From Patescibacteria group bacterium (GTDB taxonomy: Bacteria > Patescibacteriota > Patescibacteriia > Buchananbacterales > UBA6539), in assembly GCA_041649675.1 (NCBI GenBank), contig JBAZMQ010000001.1, positions 253 to 64,252 of the forward strand: a stretch of DNA of 64,000 nt. The letters run 5' to 3'. The position numbers were made by a program, and so were the translations under genes. Under the pieces are notes generated by a model that ran no database searches, was not told the origin of the DNA, and saw nothing but the letters and a program-made list of their open reading frames with translations. Numbering within the stretch: the stretch's first letter is position 1; the number at the start of each line of letters is the position of its first letter. Below are positions 2,563 through 55,025 of this stretch, in pieces.

Positions 2563-3015
2563 ATGGCATATTCACAAAAAGTAATGGATCATTTTAAAAA
2601 TCCTCATAACCAGGGTCAGATTCAAGATGCGTCAACAATTGGTGAGGTGGGCAATCCTCTTTGTGGTGATATGATGAAAATTTATCTTAAAATTGATCAT
2701 CAGCCGTCAACCGTTGATTATTTAGACGATACAATTACTGATATTAAGTTTGAGACCCTGGGTTGCGCTGCCGCTATTGCTTGTTCGTCAGTTTCAACCG
2801 ACATGGTCAAAGGCAAGACTCTGCGCGAGGCTTTTGGTTTGGAAAAAAAGGATATTGTTAATGAACTAGGAGAATTGCCGCCGGTAAAATTGCATTGTTC
2901 GGTTTTAGCGTCCGATGGTTTGAAAGTAGCCATTAAGAATTATTTACAAAATCAAGGAGTTTTAGAAGATTATCCAGAGGTTAAATCGTTCAAAATTGAA
3001 GATAATTTGCACTAG
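2563..3015 (+). CDS. iscU: Fe-S cluster assembly scaffold IscU/NifU N-terminal domain
   Basis: MAYSQKVMDHFKNPHNQG...PLCGDMMK...LGCAAAIACSS...LHCSV: the three conserved Cys motifs of IscU. Confidence 0.9.
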   Translation: MAYSQKVMDHFKNPHNQGQIQDASTIGEVGNPLCGDMMKIYLKIDHQPSTVDYLDDTITDIKFETLGCAAAIACSSVSTDMVKGKTLREAFGLEKKDIVNELGELPPVKLHCSVLASDGLKVAIKNYLQNQGVLEDYPEVKSFKIEDNLH

Positions 3016-3073
3016 CTTTTAGCTGGTAGCTTGTAGCTTGTAGGATTCTACCAGTTACAAGCTAAAAGCTAAT
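3014..3073. repeat. intergenic palindromic repeat family A (TTAGCTGGTAGCTTGTAGC / AGCTAAAAGCT), copy 1
   Basis: agcttttagctggtagcttgtagcttgtag...ccagttacaagctaaaagcta; related copies lie immediately upstream of murB (22319-22350) and rplJ (39897-39955). Confidence 0.5.
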
Positions 3074-3082
3074 AGTAAAATT

Positions 3083-3307
3083 ATGAAAGATGAAGTTAAA
3101 AAAGTTTTAGATGAAATCAGACCTAATTTGCAGGCCGATGGCGGCGATGTTGAGTTAGTGGAAGTTGATGAAAAATCTGGCGTCGTTAAAGTCCGGTTGC
3201 AAGGTGCCTGCCAGGGTTGTCCAATGTCACAAATGACTTTAAAGGAAGGGATTGGTCGGGCTTTAAAGAATAAGGTTGCAGGTTTTAAGGATATCGAGTC
3301 AGTTTAG
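3083..3307 (+). CDS. NifU C-terminal (Nfu-like) Fe-S cluster domain protein
   Basis: 74 aa with CQGCPMS CxxC motif typical of the Nfu/NifU C-terminal domain; encoded separately from the IscU domain. Confidence 0.85.
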   Translation: MKDEVKKVLDEIRPNLQADGGDVELVEVDEKSGVVKVRLQGACQGCPMSQMTLKEGIGRALKNKVAGFKDIESV

Positions 3308-3413: not shown

Positions 3414-4583
3414 ATGTCTAGCCAAAAAATCTATTTTGATCATTCGGCAACAACGCCCGTTGATCGTGAAGTCTTAAAAGCGATGACACCATTTTTTACT
3501 GAAGTTTTTGGCAATGCTTCTTCGATTCACGCTTTTGGTCAGCAAGCAATTAAAGCGGTTGATGATTCAAGGGAAAAAATCGCGGATTTTTTGGGTTGTA
3601 AAACTAATGAAGTAATATTTACTTCTGGTGCCAGCGAGAGTGATAATATTGTAATTTTAGGTTTGGCTAAACCCAGGCAGCATATTATTACTTCAAAAAT
3701 TGAGCATCCGGCAATTTTAGAACCTTGTAGGGAAATGGAAAAACAGGGTGTTGAAGTAACTTATTTAGATGTTAACAAGAAAGGATTAGTTGAGCTAGAA
3801 TCGGTTAAAAAAGCGATTAAGGAAAACACAAAGCTAATTTCAATAATGTATGTTAATAACGAAATTGGTACGATTCAACCGATCAGTGAGATTGGGAAGT
3901 TGATAAAAAAAGAAAACCGAGAACGGAAATCAGAAAACAGAATTTATTTTCATACCGATGCGGTCCAGGCTACTAATTATTGCGAAATGAATGTTGATCA
4001 GCTTGGTGTTGATTTGGTTTCAATCTCTGGTCATAAGATTTATGCCCCCAAAGGGATTGGAGCACTGTATAAAAGAGCCGGTACGCCGATTAGACCAATT
4101 CAGTTTGGTGGTCACCAAGAATATGGTATTCGGCCCGGAACCTTGAATGTGCCTGGTATTGTTGGTCTAGGTAAAGCAGTTGAATTAATTTCCCAAAGCA
4201 AAAATGATAACGAAAAAATAAAAAAATTACGCGATAAATTAATTGCTGGAATTTTGGCTAAAATTCCTAACGCTATAGTTAATGGTGATTTAGAGAAACG
4301 AGTGCCAGCTAATGCTCATTTTAGTTTTAAAGGTGTAGAAGGGGAAAGTATGCTTTTATTGTTAGACCAGGAAGGCATTGCGGTTTCAACTGGCTCGGCT
4401 TGCTCTTCGGGTTCGTTAGAACCATCTGCCGTTTTAATGGCCTTAGGCATGGATCCACTTTTAGCCCATGGCAGTTTAAGAATAACTTTGGGGAAGTTTA
4501 ATACGGAAAAAGAAATTGATTGTCTGTTGGAAAAATTACCTCCAATTATTGAAAAATTAAGAAAAATTTCGCCAATAAAATAG
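3414..4583 (+). CDS. iscS: cysteine desulfurase (class V aminotransferase)
   Basis: SSIHAFGQQA, SGHKIYAPKGIGALY (PLP-Lys), C-terminal SGSACSS active-site Cys loop; 389 aa. Contains a short insertion KKENRERKSENR at 3912-3942. Confidence 0.93.
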   Translation: MSSQKIYFDHSATTPVDREVLKAMTPFFTEVFGNASSIHAFGQQAIKAVDDSREKIADFLGCKTNEVIFTSGASESDNIVILGLAKPRQHIITSKIEHPAILEPCREMEKQGVEVTYLDVNKKGLVELESVKKAIKENTKLISIMYVNNEIGTIQPISEIGKLIKKENRERKSENRIYFHTDAVQATNYCEMNVDQLGVDLVSISGHKIYAPKGIGALYKRAGTPIRPIQFGGHQEYGIRPGTLNVPGIVGLGKAVELISQSKNDNEKIKKLRDKLIAGILAKIPNAIVNGDLEKRVPANAHFSFKGVEGESMLLLLDQEGIAVSTGSACSSGSLEPSAVLMALGMDPLLAHGSLRITLGKFNTEKEIDCLLEKLPPIIEKLRKISPIK

Positions 4584-9192: not shown

Positions 9193-12100
9193 TTATTCTA
9201 AATTTAGATTTATAGTTATGTTATCTCCTGGATTCAGTGAAACTGGTAACGGCGGTTCAGTACTAATAATTGTGTATCGTGAACCAGCTTGAAGCGAAAT
9301 TGAATAAGTGTCCCACTCCAAATTATTTAAAAGTAGTTGCCCACTAGCATTAGTAGAAAGATTTTGACTGTATTTAAAAATGTCAGGATTGGTGCCAACT
9401 TTTTTAGCCCCAGTTATAACTAAAGGTACATTGGCAGTATTGGTGTAAGCATTTGGATCAGCAGCATATTCAGCGGCAATAATATCATAATTGCCGCTTC
9501 GATTATCTTGCCAGGTAACAACCAAGTTTCCGGCTTGATTAATTATGATACCTGGATTTTTTTGATCGCCAGTAGTATTAGCATTAATTCTAATGTCGTT
9601 TGGCCATTGAGTAGTGCCAGCTGAATTTATTTTTTGGGTGTAGATATCAGTATCACCATTTCTAATGTCTTGCCAAACTACAAAGATGTTGCCAGAACTA
9701 TCCAAAGCGGCTCTGGGGTTTTCTTGGACACTACCAGAATGGGAGCTAATTGCCTGATCGCCATTTGGCCATAAGACATTGCCAGCAGAGTCATATTTTT
9801 GGCCATAAATATCATTATCGCCATTACGGTCATCTTCCCAAAAAATATAAATATTATTCTCATTATCAATTTTAACCACCGGATTATTTTGGTTGCCGCC
9901 GGCATTAGTGTTTATTCGAATATCATTTGGCCAAACAATATTACCGTTTGGATCAATTTTTTGGATAAATATATCATAATTATCAATCTGGTAATCTTCC
10001 CAAACAACATAAATATTTTCATCCTGATCAATTGCTAAATTAACTGATTGAGAATAACCGCCACCACTGGTGGTATGGGAATAGCCAATGTCAATTTGAT
10101 CCAAATTGATTTGTTGGCTGCCGTTACTCAGCAGGAAGGCTTTAAAGATAATTTTCCCTCGGGTGGTTGAAAAGGTTTTAATATGGTCATTAATGACACT
10201 GGCGGTATTGTAGTTTGGGCCACCCGCTTGGGCCCAATTAGTTCCGTTCCAGTATTTCCAAGTAACGCCATCGTCAGATAGTTGATAGTAAATTTCACCA
10301 CCATTTTTTGTCGCTGTTTCTGTGAAAGAATCCCAAGAAACTAAATTGCTGACAGTTAAAGAGCTAAGAGGTAAAACGCTTGGGCCGTTAGCTGGATAGC
10401 CTGCTCCTGATTCAGTCCATTGACAACCAGTTTGATTTTGGCAACTTAACTGAGTCAAGAAGTTAGAACAGCTGATCGTAGTGCCACTACATGGCCCTTG
10501 AATATCCCAATTACAACTGGTTTGGGTGCAGATTGGGCCAGTAGTTTGATTTTGGCATAAACAAGTGCCAGAACAAGTACCTTGTTGGGAACCCCAACTG
10601 CAGCTGGCCGCTTGGCAGGTAGACTGGCTAGAAATTTGGTTACAGTTACAGCCGGGGTTATCATAGCAAAACCAAAAAAACCAAGAGCAACCGCTGGTAG
10701 CCTTGCAAGTATTTTTACTGCCAATTGAGCCACAAGAACAATTGCCACTGCAACTTTGAGCGCCTGCTTGCCAACTGCAACTGGGCGCAGAAATACATTG
10801 GTTTTGGTCAGTAATTGTTGAGCACCCGCAGGTGTCACCGCTGCATGGTCCTTCTGCATCCCAATTGCAGGTACTTTGGTTGGTGCAGGATGTGGCACTG
10901 GAAAAAGTGGCACAATCACTGGCTGTGCCATTGCAAATTTTTATTGGCACTAATTGGGCAACGCCAGTAACAATTTTGACATTTGTCGTGCCGTCGCAAT
11001 TGCCACCGTCGCATTGGTAGTCAGCTAAGTTATTAAAGTCCCAATTGAAAGAATCTGTTGCTTTGTACATTGACGAAGAATTAGCATTGACTTTTAATTC
11101 ACTAGCCCAAATCATTTGACCATTAACATCAAATTTCTGTAAATAAATATCAGATTTGCCATTGCCAGCCCTTTCGTCTTTAAAAGCAATATATTCGGCC
11201 GTACTTGAAGCATTTAAAGCAATCTTAGGATAAATTTGATCAGCGGAAGTGCTGTCAGTATTAACTTTTATCGGCTGACTAAATAAACCATTGCCAGCGG
11301 TGTCGTATTTGTTAAAATAAATATCTTGGTTATTATTTTTATCATCATGCCAAGTGATGTAAATATTATTATTTTTATCAATTGCTAAATCCGCTCCGCC
11401 CTGATTATCAGAGCTAGTCATTGCTAAATCGTTGCTCCATTGTTTAGTTTGGGCGGTATATTTTTGGGTATAAATCCGACTGTTGTAATTACGGAAATCT
11501 TGCCAAGCAAAATAATAGTTTTGGTCAGCGCCCAAGGCAATAGCTGGGAAAAATTGGTCGGCGGTACCAACGTCAGTATTCACTGTCCATTCCGAGGGAA
11601 TGGTTTGAGAAAGGGTATGGATATCCAGGGTGGCAATTTTATCAATCGCAAAGCTAATTCTGGTTAGGCTACCTTCAATAACAGTTGCGTCAGGTTTGAT
11701 CGGGTTAGGATTACCAGCTGAATCACTGCAGCTAGTGCCATCAGGATCAATTGAACAAGTTGAATCAGTACTGTAGCCATCTTTGGTGACAATAATGTGG
11801 TAAGAGCTATTGGCTTGCGGTACGCTGGAATAATAGTAGCCTAAAGAGTTGGTTTGATGTGAAGAGTCATTAATTATTGGATTAGTTTGATTGTTAATAA
11901 TATGAATTGAAGCTTGGGAAACGGGTTGGCCATTAGCATCAATAGTATTAATCCACAAAACCCCAGCTCCTTGATTTGCTTCAATACCTTTTGGCGCGAT
12001 TGTGGTTACCGACACTACTTCTTTTGTGCCAAAGTGACCTAACCAAGAAACAGCGATTCTAACTTTCTTATAATCATTACCCAATTCGTCGGTTCCGGCT

Positions 12101-15820: not shown

Positions 15821-16861
15821 GTGAAAAATTTTTTCATCAGTAAAATTTTTATTTTGGCGACTCTGTCATTTGTCTTGGCCTTAGCCTGGACACCGATACT
15901 GACTCGCTTTTTATACAAATACGGCATCGGCAAGGGGATAAGAGATTCTAAGGCGGCCCCAATTTTTGCCCGAATGCACAAGAAAAAGGCCGGTACGCCA
16001 ACTATGGGCGGTATTTTAGTTTGGGCAACTACTTTATTTTTATGTCTTTTATTTTTTTATTTAGCAAAATTTTTTGACGGCATTTTTGGTCAATTAAATT
16101 TTTTTTCCCGTCAGCAAACATTATTGCCGCTGGGGGCGCTGGTGGCTTCCGCTTTAGTCGGTTTAGTTGATGATTTGTTTGATAGTTACCGCATGGGTAA
16201 AAATGGTGGAGGTTTAAGAATGCGCCATCGATTTTTAATTTATAGTTTTATTGCCACCGTTGGCGCTTGGTGGTTTTATTATAAATTAGGTTGGACTACT
16301 CTTTATGTACCGTTTGCCGGTTACATTGATATCGGTTTGTGGTACATCCCATTTTTCATTTTTGTCATTGTTGCCACTGCTTTTTCGGTCAATGAGGTTG
16401 ATGGTTTAGACGGTTTGGCCGGTGGTACTTTATTGGTGGCTTTCGGGGCTTATGGCGCCATTGCTTTTGCTCAAGGCCGTTACGATCTAGCGGCATTTTG
16501 CGGGGTTATCGGCGGCGCTCTTTTGGCTTTTTTGTGGTTTAATATCAATCCGGCCAGGTTTTTTATGGGCGATACCGGGTCAATGTCTTTGGGTGTTACT
16601 TTAGGGATTATTGCGATGCTGACCAACGGTGCTTTGTTTTTGCCAATCATCGGTTTTATTTTTGTCGTTGAGACGGTTTCAGTTTTGATTCAAATGACTT
16701 CCAAGAAAGTATTTGGCAAGAAATTTTTTATCTCTTCGCCGCTGCATCATCATCTTGAAGCCAAAGGCTGGCCGGAACCAAAAATCGTAATGCGGTTTTG
16801 GGTAATTTCCGGAGTTTGCTCAATTGTTGGCTTAATCTTGTTTTTAGCGGATAAAATTTAA
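15821..16861 (+). CDS. mraY: phospho-N-acetylmuramoyl-pentapeptide transferase
   Basis: NEVDGLDGLAGG motif and 10 TM topology; 346 aa. Confidence 0.93.
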   Translation: MKNFFISKIFILATLSFVLALAWTPILTRFLYKYGIGKGIRDSKAAPIFARMHKKKAGTPTMGGILVWATTLFLCLLFFYLAKFFDGIFGQLNFFSRQQTLLPLGALVASALVGLVDDLFDSYRMGKNGGGLRMRHRFLIYSFIATVGAWWFYYKLGWTTLYVPFAGYIDIGLWYIPFFIFVIVATAFSVNEVDGLDGLAGGTLLVAFGAYGAIAFAQGRYDLAAFCGVIGGALLAFLWFNINPARFFMGDTGSMSLGVTLGIIAMLTNGALFLPIIGFIFVVETVSVLIQMTSKKVFGKKFFISSPLHHHLEAKGWPEPKIVMRFWVISGVCSIVGLILFLADKI

Positions 16862-17001
16862 AAGAATCAAGAATTATGAATTATGAATAAAGAAGAAAAC
16901 AATTTTGTCTATATTAAAAAAGAAAAAGCCCTCCGGACAGAGACGGAAACTCCTCAAGACTTTTTTTTAATGATAATATATTGTTATTAGTTTTTAATAA
17001 A

Positions 17002-18456
17002 ATGGCCAACTTAAAGGGTAAAAAAGTTACAGTAATGGGTTTGGGACTCCACGGCGGCGGAGTCGCTTCTGTTAATTGGTTGGTAAAACATGGCGCTAAA
17101 GTGACCGTGACTGATTTAAAAACGGCTAAGGAATTAAAATTATCACTTAAAAAACTTAATAACTTATCAAAATGTAAACTGGTATTGGGCCGACACCGAG
17201 AGATTGACTTTAGGAATGCTGACATAATCGTGCAAAATCCGGATGTGCCCAAAGAGTCAAAATATTTAAAAATTGCCAAGAAGGCCGGTATTTTGATTGA
17301 AAATGAAGCCAGTCTTTTTTTTAAAAATTGTGCGGCAAAGATTGTTGGGGTAACTGGCACTCGCGGGAAATCAACTACCAGTACTTTGATTTATGAAATA
17401 TTAAATAAATCAGAGATCAGAAATCAGAGATCAGAAATCAGAGATCAGAAATCAGAGATCAGAAATCAGAGATCAGAAATCAGAATCTGGCTGGCTGGTC
17501 AGCCCCAGCAGCCGATGATGGCGATTTTGGATAAGGTTAAAAAAAACGATTTGGTTGTTTTGGAACTTTCTTCCTGGCAGTTGGAAATATTGGGCCAGCA
17601 AAAATTAAGTCCACATGTTGCCATAGTTACCAATATCTATCCGGATCATTTGAATCGCTATTCTTCAATGGCCGGGTATATCACCGCTAAAAAAAATATT
17701 TTTAAATTTCAAAGTAAAAACGATTTTGTAATTTTAAATTTTGATAATACTCAAACCAAAAAGATGGGTCGCGAAGTTTTGAGCCAAAGATTTTGGTTTT
17801 CCAAAAAATATTTAGCTGATCAGAACAGTTGTTTTTTAAAAGGGGATTATATATATTTTCAACAAAATGGCAAAATAAGCAAACTGGTTAATCCAGAAAT
17901 TTCTAAATTAAAGGGTGAGCATAATTTGGAAAATATTTTAGCCGCCAGCGCAGTCGCTGGTATTTTTGGCGCTAAGCCAAAAGATATCCAAAATGGTCTG
18001 AAGAATTTTTTTGGCTTGCCCGGAAGAATTGAATTGATCAGAACAGTTAAAGGTATAAAATATATCAATGATACAACGGCAACTACGCCTGACGGAACAA
18101 TGGCAGCGCTTAAGGCTTTGCCGGCAAAAAAGATAGTTTTAATCGCCGGCGGCACTTCAAAAAATATTCCCGATTTTAAATATCGGGAATTAGCCAAAAT
18201 AATTAGTCAACGATGCAGGGCTGTAGTTTTATTACCTGGTGGCGGCAGTGATCAAATTCTAAAGGTCTTAAGCCGGGTTAACTTTAAACCAGTTGTTTAT
18301 CATACCGCTGACATGGTGCAGGCAGTTACTTTGGCCGCCAGCTTGGCCAAAAACAATGATATTGTTTTGTTGTCGCCAGCTTGTGCTTCTTTTAATATTT
18401 TTATCAATGAGTTTGACCGTGGTGATAAATTTAATCAGGTAGTAGCAAAATTATGA
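17002..18456 (+). CDS. murD: UDP-N-acetylmuramoylalanine--D-glutamate ligase
   Basis: KGKKVTVMGLGLHGGG Rossmann N-terminus, GTRGKSTTSTL P-loop, Mur ligase C-domain. Track start 16981; ATG 17002 (MANLKGKK) fits the MurD N-terminus better. Carries an in-frame heptanucleotide repeat insert. Confidence 0.9.
   Translation: MANLKGKKVTVMGLGLHGGGVASVNWLVKHGAKVTVTDLKTAKELKLSLKKLNNLSKCKLVLGRHREIDFRNADIIVQNPDVPKESKYLKIAKKAGILIENEASLFFKNCAAKIVGVTGTRGKSTTSTLIYEILNKSEIRNQRSEIRDQKSEIRNQRSEIRIWLAGQPQQPMMAILDKVKKNDLVVLELSSWQLEILGQQKLSPHVAIVTNIYPDHLNRYSSMAGYITAKKNIFKFQSKNDFVILNFDNTQTKKMGREVLSQRFWFSKKYLADQNSCFLKGDYIYFQQNGKISKLVNPEISKLKGEHNLENILAASAVAGIFGAKPKDIQNGLKNFFGLPGRIELIRTVKGIKYINDTTATTPDGTMAALKALPAKKIVLIAGGTSKNIPDFKYRELAKIISQRCRAVVLLPGGGSDQILKVLSRVNFKPVVYHTADMVQAVTLAASLAKNNDIVLLSPACASFNIFINEFDRGDKFNQVVAKL
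17411..17487 (+). repeat. tandem heptanucleotide repeat (CAGAGAT/CAGAAAT, about 11 units) inside murD
   Basis: cagagatcagaaat repeated; translates in frame as SEIRNQR SEIRDQK SEIRNQR SEIR, inserted after the P-loop. Confidence 0.9.
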
Positions 18457-20930: not shown

Positions 20931-22322
20931 ATGACAGTTGATTTAAGTAAAATTAAAACAGTATATTTTATTGGCATTAAGGGTGTAGCCATGTCAGGGT
21001 TAGCCGTGATTTGTAAGCAGCGGGGTATGGCAGTTTTTGGTTCGGATGTTTCAGAAAAATTCATCACTGATAAAATATTAGCGGACTCTAACATTGAAGT
21101 TTATGAGGAATTCTTGGCTCAAAATTTGGATTGCAATCCGGATTTAGTAGTGATTGGCACTTCCTGGGGTGATGACAACGTTGAAGTAGAAGAAACAAAA
21201 AAAAGAAAGATTCCTTTTATTACTGATTCGCAAATGCGCGGCTTATTGAGCCAGGAAAAAAGAACCATTGCCGTTACCGGAGTGCACGGTAAAACCACTA
21301 CGACCGGAATTTTAGCTTATCTTTTTTTTAAAGCTGGTTTACAACCAAGTTTTTTAATTGGCACTGGCATTGTGCCGGATTTAAAAAGCAATGCCGCCTG
21401 GAGTAAGGGTAAACATTTTATTGTTGAAGGTGATGAATACGTGCGGAGTCGGGAAGATAAAATCCCGAAATTTTTAGATTTAGAACCGGCTATTTCTTTA
21501 ATTACGAGTTTGGAATGGGAACATGTTGATGTCTATCCGAGCCTAGAATCAATGGAAAAAGTTTTTGCCGAGTTGATTTTAAAAACCAAAGATTTGACCG
21601 TGGTTTGTGGCGACTGGCCCAGTCTTAAAAAAATAATTTTGGGAATTGATAAAAAAATTATTACTTACGGGTTTGACGAAAATAATTTATGGCAAGCTTA
21701 TGATGTCAGGCAAGATTTTGATCAGACTTACTTTAAAGTTCGGCAAAAAGACAAAGAGTTTGGCGAATTTAGTTTAAAGCTTTTTGGTGACCACAATGTT
21801 TTAAATGCTTTAGCCGCAATTGTAATTGGTTTAAATGAAGGGATAGATTTAGAAAAAATTCGGATAATTTTAAAAGATTTTTTAGGCACGGAGCGGCGAT
21901 TTGATGTTTCCCAAAGAGATGATATTACTTTTATTGATGATTATGCTCACCACCCAACTGCCATAAAAACTACCTTAAAAGCAATTCGCCATCGTTATCC
22001 CAGCCAGTCGGTTTGGTGCGTGTTTCAGCCGCACATGGCTTCGCGGACCAAGGCTTTACTTGATGAATTTGCTCAAAGTTTTTCGGACGTGGATTTGGTT
22101 TTATTGGCCGATATTTTTGCTTCGGCCCGCGAGCAAGCCACTGATATTACCTCAAAAGATTTAGCTGAAGCGACCAAAAAGTATCAACCAAACACAATCT
22201 ACTCAGGCGACTTAAATCAAACCATTGATTATTTGAAAGATAAAATTAAACCGGGAATGGTTTTAGTCACTATGGGAGCAGGGGATGTGTATCGGGTGAG
22301 AGATAAGTTATTAGGCTATTAG
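20931..22322 (+). CDS. murC: UDP-N-acetylmuramate--L-alanine ligase
   Basis: IGIKGVAMSGLA Rossmann N-terminus, IAVTGVHGKTTTTGIL P-loop; 463 aa. Confidence 0.93.
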   Translation: MTVDLSKIKTVYFIGIKGVAMSGLAVICKQRGMAVFGSDVSEKFITDKILADSNIEVYEEFLAQNLDCNPDLVVIGTSWGDDNVEVEETKKRKIPFITDSQMRGLLSQEKRTIAVTGVHGKTTTTGILAYLFFKAGLQPSFLIGTGIVPDLKSNAAWSKGKHFIVEGDEYVRSREDKIPKFLDLEPAISLITSLEWEHVDVYPSLESMEKVFAELILKTKDLTVVCGDWPSLKKIILGIDKKIITYGFDENNLWQAYDVRQDFDQTYFKVRQKDKEFGEFSLKLFGDHNVLNALAAIVIGLNEGIDLEKIRIILKDFLGTERRFDVSQRDDITFIDDYAHHPTAIKTTLKAIRHRYPSQSVWCVFQPHMASRTKALLDEFAQSFSDVDLVLLADIFASAREQATDITSKDLAEATKKYQPNTIYSGDLNQTIDYLKDKIKPGMVLVTMGAGDVYRVRDKLLGY

Positions 22323-22350
22323 CTTGTAGCTTTTAGCTGTTAGAAATTAT
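22319..22350. repeat. intergenic repeat family A, copy 2
   Basis: ttagcttgtagcttttagctgttag directly upstream of murB start; shares agcttgtag and agcttttagctg with copies at 3014 and 39897. Confidence 0.4.
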
Positions 22351-27135: not shown

Positions 27136-27329
27136 AATTTAATATATTATTAAAACGTTGCTCGTCTGCCGAGTTTACGAAAGACAAAGTCGCAGATTCA
27201 GCAGACGAGCAGGCGAGAAAAATCGATTGGGCAAAAGCTCCCCAGTCTCCTACTAACCCCTGCGGTTAACCATAGAAATATAAATAGTGTAATAGAGACA
27301 AAATTTAGGAGAAACTAATTAATATAGTT

Positions 27330-27436
27330 CCTCTCTCCGTTCTCGGAGAGAGGACAGGAGTGAGGCAACAAACTCCGTAACCTCACCCGGTCTCTTGGCT
27401 TCGCTTAAGGACCACCCTCTCCGTCTTCGGAGAGGG
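27330..27436. repeat. GC-rich hairpin repeat cluster (copies H1 and H2 plus gtaacctcaccc box)
   Basis: cctctctccg-ttct-cggagagagg (27330-27353); gtgagg...cctcac; gtaacctcaccc (27378-27389); ccctctccg-tctt-cggagaggg (27415-27436). Related copies at 29603-29626 and 30007-30043. Confidence 0.5.
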
Positions 27437-27477
27437 AAGATAATAAAGGTATAAGCAGTGCCATGGAAAGTAGAACT

Positions 27478-31149: not shown

Positions 31150-32061
31150 ATGCCTGAGCTACCTGAAGTTGAAACTTTACGCCGAGAGTTAAATTCAATA
31201 ATCAAAGGTAAGGTAATCAAATCTGCGGTTTGCAATTGGCCAAAGATGGTTAAGCCATTGACGGTTTTGGAATTTCAAAATCAAATTAAGAATAAAAAAA
31301 TTACAGACATAAAAAGAAAAGCTAAAGTTTTAATTTTAGATCTTGCCGGTCCGTTGTCGCTTTTGATCCATCTTAAGCTAACTGGACAGTTGATTTACAG
31401 AGATAAGAAAACAGAGAACAGAAATCAGAGGCTTGTTGTTGGGGGGCATCCGCTGCCGCTTCGTTCCAGCGAGACAAATCCTCAAAAAGGTGGTAGCAAT
31501 GGTTTACCGAATAAATTTACTCATTTGACTTTGAATTTTAGCGATGGTTCAAAACTATTTTTTAATGATTTGCGGAAATTCGGTTGGGCAAAGCTAGTTG
31601 ATGATTCAGGTTTGGCTGAAGTGATTGAAAAACATGGACCCGAACCTTTAACTAAGGAGTTTACTTTCAAATATTTTTTAGCGATATTAAAAAAGTATCC
31701 GAACCGAAAAATTAAACAGATTCTATTGGATCAAAATTTAATTTCCGGTTTGGGCAATATTTATGCTGATGAAAGTTGTTTTTGGGCTAAAGTCAGGCCA
31801 ACCAGAGTTAATAAGACTTTAAAACCCGAAGAGATCAAAAAATTATTTTATTGTATTCCAAAGATTTTAAAGTTTGCCATTGGCAAAAAGGGGACATCGG
31901 CTAATACTTATGTTCGTTTGTCTGGCCAGCCTGGCGGCATGGAGCCGTATTTAAAAGTTTACGGCAGAAAAGGGGAGAAATGCCAGCGTTGCGGCGGGGT
32001 AGTGGAAAAAATAAAATTAAACGGCCGCGGGACGCATTTTTGTCCAAAGTGTCAGAAATAA
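31150..32061 (+). CDS. mutM: formamidopyrimidine-DNA glycosylase (Fpg/MutM)
   Basis: MPELPEVETLRREL catalytic N-terminus, H2TH, C-terminal zinc finger CQRCGG...CPKC. Track start 31141 is a TTG. Contains an insertion relative to canonical Fpg around 31407-31431 (KKTENRNQR...). Confidence 0.92.
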   Translation: MPELPEVETLRRELNSIIKGKVIKSAVCNWPKMVKPLTVLEFQNQIKNKKITDIKRKAKVLILDLAGPLSLLIHLKLTGQLIYRDKKTENRNQRLVVGGHPLPLRSSETNPQKGGSNGLPNKFTHLTLNFSDGSKLFFNDLRKFGWAKLVDDSGLAEVIEKHGPEPLTKEFTFKYFLAILKKYPNRKIKQILLDQNLISGLGNIYADESCFWAKVRPTRVNKTLKPEEIKKLFYCIPKILKFAIGKKGTSANTYVRLSGQPGGMEPYLKVYGRKGEKCQRCGGVVEKIKLNGRGTHFCPKCQK

Positions 32062-39759: not shown

Positions 39760-39960
39760 CTAAGTACAATTTAGAGAGACCACAGACCGTAGGGGCAAAA
39801 TTGCTCAAATTAGACAAATTCTAGCCCTGCGCAGGCCAAATAGCTAAATCTTTTAGCTTTTTATTGCAAGTCTGTGGCCAAACCACAGCTTTTTGTTTAG
39901 CTGGTAACTTATAGCTTGTAGTCCATTGCTAAAAGCTAAAAGCTAAAAGCTAATTACTAA
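39760..39960 (+). promoter_or_regulatory. ribosomal protein L10 leader with intrinsic attenuator hairpin
   Basis: About 200-nt structured leader before rplJ: ccacagac...gtctgtgg long-range pairing, palindrome cctgcgcagg, and ctgtgg-ccaaa-ccacag + ctttttgttt terminator-like hairpin at 39872-39898. Also carries repeat family A copy 3 (39897-39955). Confidence 0.45.
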
Positions 39961-50310: not shown

Positions 50311-52050
50311 ATGGCATTCTACTCACCAAAAAAAATAGAGCCGGCAAAAAGTAATTTGAATATTAGAATGATATTTTTGCTGCTGGTTATTTTTTTTGTT
50401 GGTGTAGTAATTATTTTTCGGTTATTTAGCTTGCAAATATTGCAGCATTCTTTTTATAATACCTTAGCTTCGCAAGAGCATGAAACTTACAAAGATTTGC
50501 TGGCGGAAAGAGGCTCAATTTATACTAAAGAAAAAGATCAGTTATATCCTTTGGTCACTAACCGCGGCTATTATTTAATTTATGCTGAACCAATCAGAAT
50601 TGAAAAACCTAATGAGGTAACTAATGCCATTGCATCAATATTAAATTTTACTGATTCTGAAAAGCAGGAGTTACTTGCTCGGCTAAGTAAAACTAATGAT
50701 GTCTATGAACCGATTAAACATAAAATTACTTTGGCCCAAGTTGATCAAATTAAGAATTTAAAATTAGCGGGCATTGGTTTTGCACCAGAAAGTTATCGTT
50801 TTTATCCGGAAAAGGGCATTGGTGGACATGTTTTTGGGTTTATTGGTTTTAAAGATGACAAAAAAGTTGGCGAGTATGGTTTGGAAGGCTATTTTGATCA
50901 GGAGTTATCCGGTCAGCCGGGTTTGATTAAAGCGGCTAAAGACGCTTTGGGCTCAATTATCACTGTTGGTCAGCGATCAGTCAAAAAAGCCGAAAATGGC
51001 TCGGACTTAGTTTTAACCATTGACCGGCAAATTCAATTCGTGGCTTGCCAGAAGCTAAAAGAATTTGCCGATAAATTCAAAGCCGATGGCGGTAGCGTTG
51101 TGATTATGGCGCCAACTGGTGAAATATTAGCTATGTGTGGTTTGCCGGATTTTGATCCTGACAATTATCAAGACACTGAAGATATTAACGCTTTTAACAA
51201 CCCAGTAATTTTTTCAGCTTACGAGCCGGGCTCAGTTTTTAAAGGTATTACCATGGCAGCCGGTTTAGATTCGGGTGCGGTTGATATCAATACCACCTAT
51301 GAAGATACCGGTGAAGTTAAAATTGGCGGATTTACAATTAAAAATTCTGACTTGAAAGCGCACGGTAAAACGACGATGGTTGGGATTTTGGAAAAATCTT
51401 TAAATACAGGCGCAATTTTTGTTGAGCAGAAAGTTGGTAAAACAACTTTTGAAAATTATGTCAGGAATTTTGGCTTCGGAAAGCTGACTGGTATAACTTT
51501 AGAAAAGGAAGTGCCGGGTGATCTTTCTGCCTTAAGCAAGCCAGGTGAAATTTACGGCATGACCGCTTCGTATGGCCAAGGAATCATGGTAACGCCAATC
51601 CAATTAGTAGCCGCTTATGGTGCAATTGCCAATCAGGGCAAATTATATAAACCATACATTGTTTCAGAAATTATAAATCCTAATGGCCAAAAACAAACAT
51701 TTGGCCCTCAATCGGTCAGGCAAGTAATTTCACCCAAGGCCGCTTCATTGCTGACAGGAATGCTAACTTCGGTGGTTGAACATGGTTATGGCCAGTTAGC
51801 TGGTAATAAAGGCTACTATTTTGCCGGTAAGACCGGAACGGCTCAAGTGGCTTCGCCTGGCGGTGGTTATGGCAGTAAAACCAACCATACTTTTGTCGGG
51901 TTTGGCCCAATTTCTAAGCCAGCTTTCATTATGGTCACTGTCCTTAATAATCCCAAAGGCGTTAAGTTTGCCGAAAGTAGCGCTACGCCACTTTTTGGTC
52001 AGATTGCCCAATTTTTGTTAAACTATTATCAGATTAAGCCAGATTATTAA
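50311..52050 (+). CDS. ftsI: penicillin-binding protein 2 / FtsI (class B PBP transpeptidase)
   Basis: N-terminal TM, PBP dimerisation domain, SVFK (SxxK), SLN (SxN) and KTGTAQ (KTG) motifs; 579 aa. Confidence 0.9.
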   Translation: MAFYSPKKIEPAKSNLNIRMIFLLLVIFFVGVVIIFRLFSLQILQHSFYNTLASQEHETYKDLLAERGSIYTKEKDQLYPLVTNRGYYLIYAEPIRIEKPNEVTNAIASILNFTDSEKQELLARLSKTNDVYEPIKHKITLAQVDQIKNLKLAGIGFAPESYRFYPEKGIGGHVFGFIGFKDDKKVGEYGLEGYFDQELSGQPGLIKAAKDALGSIITVGQRSVKKAENGSDLVLTIDRQIQFVACQKLKEFADKFKADGGSVVIMAPTGEILAMCGLPDFDPDNYQDTEDINAFNNPVIFSAYEPGSVFKGITMAAGLDSGAVDINTTYEDTGEVKIGGFTIKNSDLKAHGKTTMVGILEKSLNTGAIFVEQKVGKTTFENYVRNFGFGKLTGITLEKEVPGDLSALSKPGEIYGMTASYGQGIMVTPIQLVAAYGAIANQGKLYKPYIVSEIINPNGQKQTFGPQSVRQVISPKAASLLTGMLTSVVEHGYGQLAGNKGYYFAGKTGTAQVASPGGGYGSKTNHTFVGFGPISKPAFIMVTVLNNPKGVKFAESSATPLFGQIAQFLLNYYQIKPDY

Positions 52051-52128
52051 GAATTAAGAATTTAGAATTACGAATTATGTTTGACTCTTAATTCTAAATT
52101 CATAATTCTTAATTCATAATCTCAATTC
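52051..52128. repeat. AT-rich inverted repeat family B, copy 3
   Basis: gaattaagaatttagaattacgaatt...aattcataattcttaattcataat. Confidence 0.45.
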
Positions 52129-54929: not shown

Positions 54930-55025
54930 TTGAATTAGAAATTATGAATTAGGGATAAATAAAATTCTTAATTCCTAATTCTTAATTCCTAATTCTTAGT
55001 TCATAATTCTTAATTCCTAAGATAA
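54930..55025. repeat. AT-rich repeat family B, copy 4 (tandem ATTCTTAATTCCTA units)
   Basis: aattcttaattcctaattcttaattcctaattcttagttcataattcttaattcctaag. Confidence 0.45.

Follow-up and report, generated by a model that had tools for sequence, protein, structure and literature searches.

In the 64 kb of DNA analysed here (hereafter, the window), short arrays of tandem heptamers lie in frame within three genes: iscS, murD and fpg. All three sites hold arrays of one heptamer family, WCNGARA, with the core AAATCAG/AGATCAG. We think it likely that these inserts are heptanucleotide microsatellites, varied in length by slippage and filtered by selection, in a genome of the candidate phyla radiation (CPR) that is rich in repeats of period 7. 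The nearest homologous proteins come from metagenome-assembled genomes (MAGs) of Patescibacteria (CPR), several of which are labelled Candidatus Buchananbacteria. The repeat class itself is a known one. This case is set apart by the CPR host, the unusual location in essential genes, and one perfect tract that is polymorphic in length.

Tandem arrays were called with Tandem Repeats Finder (TRF). The first array, at positions 3906–3942 of the forward strand, is degenerate and consists of about five units (AAAAAGA, AAACCGA, GAACGGA, AATCAGA and AAACAGA; period 7, 5.3 copies, 73% matches). It encodes KKENRERKSENR and lies within the gene for a NifS/IscS-type class V cysteine desulfurase (3414–4583, forward strand; NCBIfam TIGR03402, 1.4e-153; PDB 9wep, 1.6e-105). 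The family matches are strong, yet under the curated equivalog cut-offs, and the gene is downstream of Rrf2, NifU_N and NifU genes. The second array (17407–17485, forward strand) is a perfect repeat of AAATCAG-AGATCAG. It comprises 11.3 heptamers or, read as the 14-mer AAATCAGAGATCAG, 5.6 copies with 100% identity (TRF score 156), encodes SEIRNQRSEIRDQKSEIRNQRSEIR, and is length-polymorphic. Its host is murD (17002–18456, forward strand; TIGR01087, 3.3e-104, 349 bits), which specifies UDP-N-acetylmuramoyl-L-alanine--D-glutamate ligase in a cluster with the order mraY-murD-ftsW-murG-murC-murB. The MurD protein of the window is identical to NCBI entry MFA5021469.1 (484 aa), which is encoded on a MAG contig of 173.8 kb. 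The third array, also degenerate, has about five units (ACAGAGA, TAAGAAA, ACAGAGA, ACAGAAA and TCAGAGG; 31397–31431, forward strand) and encodes YRDKKTENRNQR. TRF detects periods of 7 and 14 here, with 4.9 copies at period 7 (31397–31430). The host gene is fpg, or mutM, encoding formamidopyrimidine-DNA glycosylase (31150–32061, forward strand, with the start set at MPELPEVE; TIGR00577, 1.8e-81, 273 bits; aligned with PDB 1tdz). Exactly the same Fpg protein is also present on other assemblies.

An earlier note on this DNA had described related sequence in these three genes, with reading frames kept open. We find that sequence where it was reported, as a single period-7 family, and the profile matches above bear out the gene identities then assigned. 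The 23-nt core GAAAACMGAGAACRGAAATCAGA has exact matches at 3912 and 31407. When up to three mismatches are allowed, further matches occur only within the murD array, and 100 dinucleotide-preserving shuffles give an expectation of 0.00. Hence, the objection raised in the same note, that the resemblance might be a trivial A-rich bias found throughout the genome, fails. The iscS and fpg cores are identical at 21 of 23 nt but are translated in different frames: gaa-aac-cga in iscS, giving ENRERKS, and g-aaa-aca-gag in fpg, giving KTENRNQ. The resemblance is therefore at the level of DNA and is not peptide convergence. In murD, one open reading frame (ORF) runs through the array, and this is so for both known alleles.

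The three arrays are part of a wider pattern. One uniform scan of the window detected 10 period-7 arrays, compared to 0.05 in shuffled sequences, and seven of period 14, compared to none; other periods gave about 0–2. A looser threshold gives 12 arrays, 10 of them intergenic, although intergenic DNA makes up 11% of the window. Few motifs are involved. The GTAGCTT/AAAAGCT family occurs at 3019, 22320 and 39925, with an inverted partner at 3059; the AAGAATT family occurs at 16862, 52045, 52097 and 54963; the AAATCAG family occurs in murD and, in degenerate form, in iscS and fpg. Each of these families thus has 3–4 loci per 64 kb. For comparison at the species level we used a related genome of 922 kb (loci L218 and L219), which has 8–9 period-7 arrays per 21 kb and 0–2 for periods of 5, 6, 8 and 9. 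We conclude that period-7 arrays, in a few motif families, are a genome-wide and clade-wide feature.

Since 7 and 3 have no common factor, a heptamer array gives the same peptide, with a period of 7 residues, whichever of the three frames it is read in. For the same reason, the downstream frame is kept only when the number of units gained or lost is a multiple of three (3n). By this arithmetic, an array would be readable through a gene only if its seven cyclic triplets included no stop codon. The AAGAATT, AAAAGCT, AATTAGG and AATTATG families have stops on both strands, and are seen here in intergenic DNA only. The AAATCAG/AGATCAG (SEIRNQK/SEIRDQR) and AAGCTAC (KLQATSY) families are stop-free on one strand only. 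These two are the families found inside ORFs, both in the open orientation. The peptides read from AAATCAG arrays are hydrophilic (SEIRNQK/TENRNQR).

We propose the following route to such inserts. Strand slippage, or unequal exchange within an array, would add or remove units. Because the host genes are essential, purifying selection would discard alleles that are not of 3n units. Selection would likewise discard arrays that contain stops, or that lie outside tolerant surface loops and linkers. The shared insert would then be the remainder left by a filter, for stop codons and for tolerance, acting on a genome-wide repeat process. Three genes seem to share one element because AAATCAG is the readable family of this genome.

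One length change between close relatives is apparent. We compared about 35 kb of the window with contig ERZ27247363 k141_3103547, at 99.98–100% identity. There are three differences only: a single nucleotide polymorphism at 11701, a 194-nt tandem duplication near 27299–27469, and the murD array. The array of ERZ27247363 is shorter by 42 nt, equal to 6 heptamers, three 14-mers or 14 aa, and so has 5 units where the window has 11. Both alleles are in frame, encoding proteins of 484 aa (window) and 470 aa (ERZ27247363). Note that, because the 14-nt period is perfect, no step smaller than 42 nt would leave this array in frame. The arrays of iscS and fpg, which are shorter and degenerate, and every intergenic array of the compared stretch are identical between the assemblies. 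The earlier note had suggested a slippage-prone sequence that expands in frame. The exact 42-nt difference between near-identical assemblies, and the 7-aa steps of orthologous MurD loops described below, speak for this.

Short-read assemblers may mis-size tandem repeats, and the two murD alleles are both assembled sequences. The tracts, or the length difference, could thus have arisen during metagenome assembly, by collapse or expansion of repeats or by chimeric joins. We hold this to be extremely unlikely. Independent assemblies from ENA, Logan and NCBI agree exactly on the iscS and fpg arrays (for iscS, ENA and Logan were compared directly). The murD array, at 79 nt, is shorter than the k of 141 implied by the name of the ENA contig, and both its alleles are in frame. 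Orthologous arrays are present in several other species and samples, and isolate genomes carry such arrays too. As for the duplication noted above, window positions 27299–27469 are single copy, and the near-identical strain (L001, 20256–20623) has two copies in tandem. The two 174-nt copies are 194 nt apart, 94% identical, and located in the spacer upstream of an asparaginase-like gene.

Species with only 61–79% protein identity share the sites of the arrays at the level of codons. Five other MurD genes, at approximately 60–65% identity, were read at the DNA level. The site used in the window holds WCAGARA arrays in four other species, and the arrays of the orthologs have 4–7 units. The murD gene of L208 contains a perfect (AAATCAG)x4 followed by AAAAAA, or (AAATCAG)x4.6 overall. 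Those of L209 and L207 mix ACAGAAA, TCAGAAA and TCAGAGA units, of which L207 has 7, and the array of L205 is GC-enriched and degenerate. Counted from the conserved K to WLAG, the MurD loops are 12, 12, 12, 12, 19 and 26 aa long, and so differ in steps of 7 aa (21 nt, 3 units). In the 922-kb relative, the IscS gene (L219, 79% identity) has GAAAACA, GAAAACG, GAAATCA and GAAAACA at the same site, and the Fpg gene (L218, 68% identity) has AGAAATA, AGAAATC, AGATATC, AGAAATC and AGAAG. Four Fpg relatives have KLQATSYKL at the array site of the window, encoded by (AAGCTAC)n (the DNA was checked in L217). The MurD gene of L207 carries an AAGCTAC array at a second loop. AAGCTAC is the reverse complement of GTAGCTT, the intergenic family of the window.

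Since arrays are at the same sites across species, they are old, and no recent movement is apparent. Hence, we take the arrays to be clade-level insertions, not recent events in this genome. The earlier note had proposed a comparison with orthologs, in which shared residues in distant lineages would mean that there were no insertions. Close relatives do have the same residues and distant homologues do not, so that the inserts are shared within the clade and remain insertions beyond it. The suggestion of a mobile mini-element, made in the same note, finds no support: the sites are shared between species at 61–79% identity, no terminal inverted repeats or target-site duplications were seen, and the shared 23-mer occurs in six unrelated metagenome contigs. 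In the latter it is always within mixed heptamer arrays, and none of the contigs derives from this organism. MITEs (miniature transposable elements with inverted repeats) and repetitive extragenic palindromic (REP) sequences are also short, non-coding and multi-copy, and can end up in frame in genes. Unlike these, the arrays are purely tandem repeat inside, orthologous across species and not variably present. Reading of the array borders revealed neither inverted termini nor, apart from the repeat unit itself, any duplication of the flanks. There was no presence/absence polymorphism in the ~35 kb strain comparison, and the arrays are common to the species just mentioned. We therefore rejected membership of the MITE or REP classes.

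Distant homologues have short loops at all three sites, in line with what the earlier note had described. The sizes of the inserts needed correction by alignment for MurD, Fpg and IscS. The MurD insert adds 21 aa compared to S. agalactiae MurD (PDB 3lk7), between the helix that follows the P-loop and the next strand. Distant MurD proteins have 2–5 residues here, or unrelated inserts. An AlphaFold2 model of MurD, built on 25 homologues, has a mean pLDDT of 85.5. Residues 141–157, between a helix (123–135) and a strand (162–165), have a pLDDT below 50, and the three-domain fold is otherwise confidently predicted and intact. In Fpg, the heptamer part accounts for about 5–7 aa, within a region that exceeds its counterpart in PDB 1tdz by 30 aa. 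The array is in the turn between LKLTGQL and VVGGH, where most CPR homologues have P-K-K-G-K. The IscS loop is 6 aa longer than that of PDB 9wep, with the alignment gap opposite the array, but exceeds the consensus of its clade by only 2 aa. That consensus, KELNKSRK-NK, is already rich in K, N and R. At the RNA level, the murD array folds no better than shuffled sequences (z = -0.76). We also rejected a role as a slippery heptamer for programmed -1 frameshifting: AAATCAG does not conform to X XXY YYZ, there is no significant fold, and a single ORF spans the array.

The peptides might themselves be what is selected, as charged, flexible or helical heptad linkers, so that the DNA likeness would follow from codon usage for K, E, N, R, Q and S. 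The same sites are kept across species, the peptides are hydrophilic with heptad periodicity, and the length of the heptad repeat in NeuO tunes activity (PMC13001214). However, iscS and fpg read similar DNA in different frames, to yield different peptides, and within the murD array the identity at period 14 is 100%, with synonymous positions included. Furthermore, relatives hold unrelated peptides at the same sites (e.g. QATSYKL) and many have none. The insert lacks a confident predicted structure, and a difference of 14 aa between near-identical strains fits with tolerance and not with a tuned length. Selection for function of the peptide is, on this evidence, very unlikely. Most likely, the peptides encoded by the arrays are tolerated passengers and not functional modules.

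The motif is not confined to this clade. We scanned for (TCAGARA)x3.7, taking one genome per species, and obtained at least 120 stretches. They come from Verrucomicrobiota, Planctomycetota, Acidobacteriota, Bacteroidota, Chloroflexota, Actinomycetota, CPR, cyanobacteria and a Methanosarcina, and isolate genomes are among the matches listed. Many of the listed matches are about 32–33 nt long, in frame, and sharply bordered even where the GC content is 60–70%. Among them, the hosts identified with Pfam, each with the array in a linker or loop, include Mfd, E2 acyltransferase, FolC, transketolase, HisRS, oxoprolinase, CstA and IleRS. A Memo-AMMECR1 fusion, encoded by a Buchananbacteria MAG, also has (TCAGARA)n in a linker or loop. 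The CstA array is at the same site in three species (L094, L108 and L111), and arrays are found directly upstream of start codons in L005, L034 and L124 (in the last case before an apparent uppS gene). For the listed matches, the size mode of 31–35 nt accounts for 75% of arrays embedded in ORFs and 41% of those outside. Because the mode persists outside ORFs, we rejected frame selection as its full cause.

To gauge motif specificity, three composition-matched heptamers (TGACARA, CTGAARA and ACTGARA) were run as controls on public viral contigs. Note that two of these overlap in cyclic class and so are not fully independent. TCAGARA was found at 12 loci, and the controls at 13, 38 and 39. The matches of the genome scan had looked like a discrete module, but controls of like composition do not fall short of TCAGARA in number. 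It is thus not enriched over its peers, heptamer arrays in general are common, and we rejected the notion that the motif is special. Given that each unit varies at two positions, with two states at each, a match over three units of the kind shared by iscS and fpg is expected about 1 in 64 times; this is suggestive of copying and does not prove it.

Several observations sit poorly with slippage and selection as the whole explanation. Each genome has few heptamer families with many loci each, for which slippage alone gives no reason. Nor does slippage alone explain why two unrelated families, AAATCAG and AAGCTAC, should be at the same Fpg site in sister lineages. The modal size of arrays of the motif is 31–35 nt (~4.6 units), even outside ORFs. 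Third-codon positions of the arrays are identical between species at 18 of 19 sites, compared to 49% elsewhere. Against the gene-wide rate this has a binomial p of ~3e-5, although the figure weakens once bias towards A-ending codons is allowed for. This conservation could be due to homogenisation, to conversion from one array to another, or to selection for the nucleotide sequence itself. The net gain in Fpg is 5 aa, and not the 7 aa that three units would give. Finally, the length polymorphism consists of two assembled alleles at one locus, and the test of motif specificity rests on viral contigs instead of bacterial genomes.

Many of these points would be accommodated if a heptamer module of ~32–35 nt were seeded from another array, with slippage only adjusting length later. 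Such copying could occur by ectopic templated repair, by gene conversion between dispersed arrays, or by an unknown non-autonomous mobile process. The few families with many loci, the two families at an identical Fpg site and the second array (AAGCTAC) in L207 MurD are all consistent with it. So too are the three variant units that iscS and fpg have in the same order (21/23 nt), the modal size with sharp borders at 60–70% GC, and the conservation of array DNA past synonymous expectation. Inverted-array hairpins at orthologous intergenic sites, whose families in L218/L219 are not those of the window, fit equally. Conversely, neither terminal inverted repeats nor target-site duplications nor an accompanying gene were seen, coding arrays are orthologous at 61–79% protein identity, so that no recent movement is seen, and the ~35 kb strain comparison contains no presence/absence difference. 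In addition, the 23-mer recurs in six unrelated contigs, the three-unit match has the 1-in-64 expectation noted above, and control heptamers are equally common. We consider this explanation unlikely. The more specific version, in which modules of ~4.6 units (32–35 nt) are seeded ready-made by active, family-specific copying in this CPR clade, strikes us as rather doubtful. If true, the copying process would also act for (AAATCAG)4.6 in many phyla, in frame in loops and linkers and near start codons. The modal size, like the four units of GGGAATC repeats (see below), would be the footprint of this process. Templated ectopic repair, conversion between arrays, or an unrecognised enzyme would be the candidates. 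Our preferred explanation therefore remains that of microsatellites, altered by slippage and filtered by selection.

In keeping with that explanation, the arrays have head-to-tail 7-nt units, vary in copy number (in murD), and exceed what composition predicts. They also resemble the STRR sequences of cyanobacteria (short repetitive DNA repeated in tandem) in forming few families with many, mostly intergenic, loci. Vioque reportedly described, in 1997, STRR heptamers inside the cyanobacterial gene for RNase P RNA. The STRR sequences (CCCCAGT and others) are unrelated to the motifs of the window. In both systems, a few dispersed heptamer families are sometimes found within a functional gene at a tolerant peripheral position. 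The STRR host gene, however, makes an RNA, for which there is no frame rule, and both the taxon and the sequences are different. We rejected actual STRR membership since the motifs differ, and the host is a Patescibacteria MAG and not a heterocystous cyanobacterium. The two work alike.

In agreement with the control counts above, many bacteria have an excess of heptameric simple sequence repeats (SSRs), for which polymerase slippage is a proposed cause (Mrazek et al. 2007, summarised in PMC4692102). Published examples are the GGGAATC repeats of Xanthomonas and the GGGGA(C/T)T repeats of Nostoc (PMC4692102). The arrays described here share with such SSRs their tandem 7-bp units, genome-wide occurrence, mostly in intergenic DNA or at gene ends, and small number of families. 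Hairpin-capable inverted pairs, length variation between relatives, and a modal size near four units are further common features. The differences are the CPR/Patescibacteria host, with its small AT-rich genome, and the A-rich motifs. Also, the published G-rich repeats are under-represented in ORFs, whereas several arrays here are in essential genes and are translated. Rehm et al. ascribed the four-unit preference of GGGAATC repeats to G-quadruplexes. AAATCAG has no capacity to form these, and so their account does not apply to the size mode of AAATCAG arrays. Our search of the literature turned up no account of heptamer repeats, or of repeat inserts in frame, for CPR/Patescibacteria.

A closer parallel for translation of heptamers is neuO, in the CUS-3 prophage of E. 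coli K1. This gene has a heptanucleotide variable number tandem repeat, 5'-AAGACTC-3', and is read through only if the copy number is divisible by 3 (PMC13001214). Here as there, a 7-bp repeat is translated to heptad peptides, the divisible-by-3 rule holds, and copy number is varied by slippage, as we propose for the arrays of the window. However, neuO is a non-essential on/off switch for surface modification, with repeats at the 5' end, and is out of frame in 66% of genomes. The arrays of the window are internal, in essential or housekeeping genes, and only in-frame alleles were seen. We rejected a phase-variable contingency locus because both murD alleles and the five orthologous arrays are in frame, and the genes concerned encode MurD, Fpg and a cysteine desulfurase.

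The pattern suggests a rule for a genome with many 7-bp repeats: only stop-free families are found in genes, in loops, and in steps of three units (7 aa). The perfect 79-nt murD tract should yield frameshifted, probably lethal, variants at an appreciable rate. It is hence a useful case for gauging the mutational load that symbionts with small genomes tolerate. Annotators should note that tracts of this kind can disrupt gene calls or assemblies. The family swaps, at protein and intergenic sites, together with the ~4.6-unit mode, offer a handle on the origin of bacterial heptamer repeats.

Among the intergenic arrays of the window named above, four span 16861–16898, 22319–22344, 39924–39960 and 54962–55020. 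Often, intergenic arrays are inverted pairs immediately after gene ends, which fold as long hairpins. Two have been predicted at 3008–3085 (-33.1 kcal/mol, z = -5.0) and 52040–52125 (-27.5 kcal/mol, z = -7.9). Since the stems are made wholly of tandem heptamers, these hairpins may be terminators or transcript stabilisers. Scans of the window with Rfam, at the gathering threshold, and for tRNAs found nothing. After nifU-N, inverted heptamer pairs are present both in the window (3013–3080) and in L219 (9601–9672). After murC, the window has the array at 22319–22344 and L218 has an inverted pair (1350–1419). At these orthologous intergenic sites, the motif is AAGAATC in the 922-kb relative and GTAGCTT in the window. 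Thus, the architecture is kept and the motif is replaced.

Other inserts are found close to, or at, the sites of the coding arrays. A second and non-repetitive insert of 10 aa, PLPLRSSETN, follows VVGGH in Fpg (31450–31479). It is present in some Fpg relatives only (P0244, P0254, P0256, P0257 and P0279), is absent from the closest (P0243), and its 30 nt have no further copy in the window. The MurD and Fpg loop sites of CPR relatives (P0013, P0243, P0254, P0256 and P0257) hold different inserts, for example CHPESSSRVCEMPKQVRHDKK, ACLPAGRSE and PRLRSGQA, which resemble translated GC-rich palindromic repeat DNA. This resemblance suggests that the MurD and Fpg loops may be general sinks for short repetitive DNA. 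In the IscS loop, P0129, P0140, P0147 and P0151 have another 7-residue periodicity, KTQNAKR-KTQNLGK, which is broken in P0134 by an additional insert of 15 aa. This periodicity hints at another heptamer, or a 21-nt repeat, at the same site.

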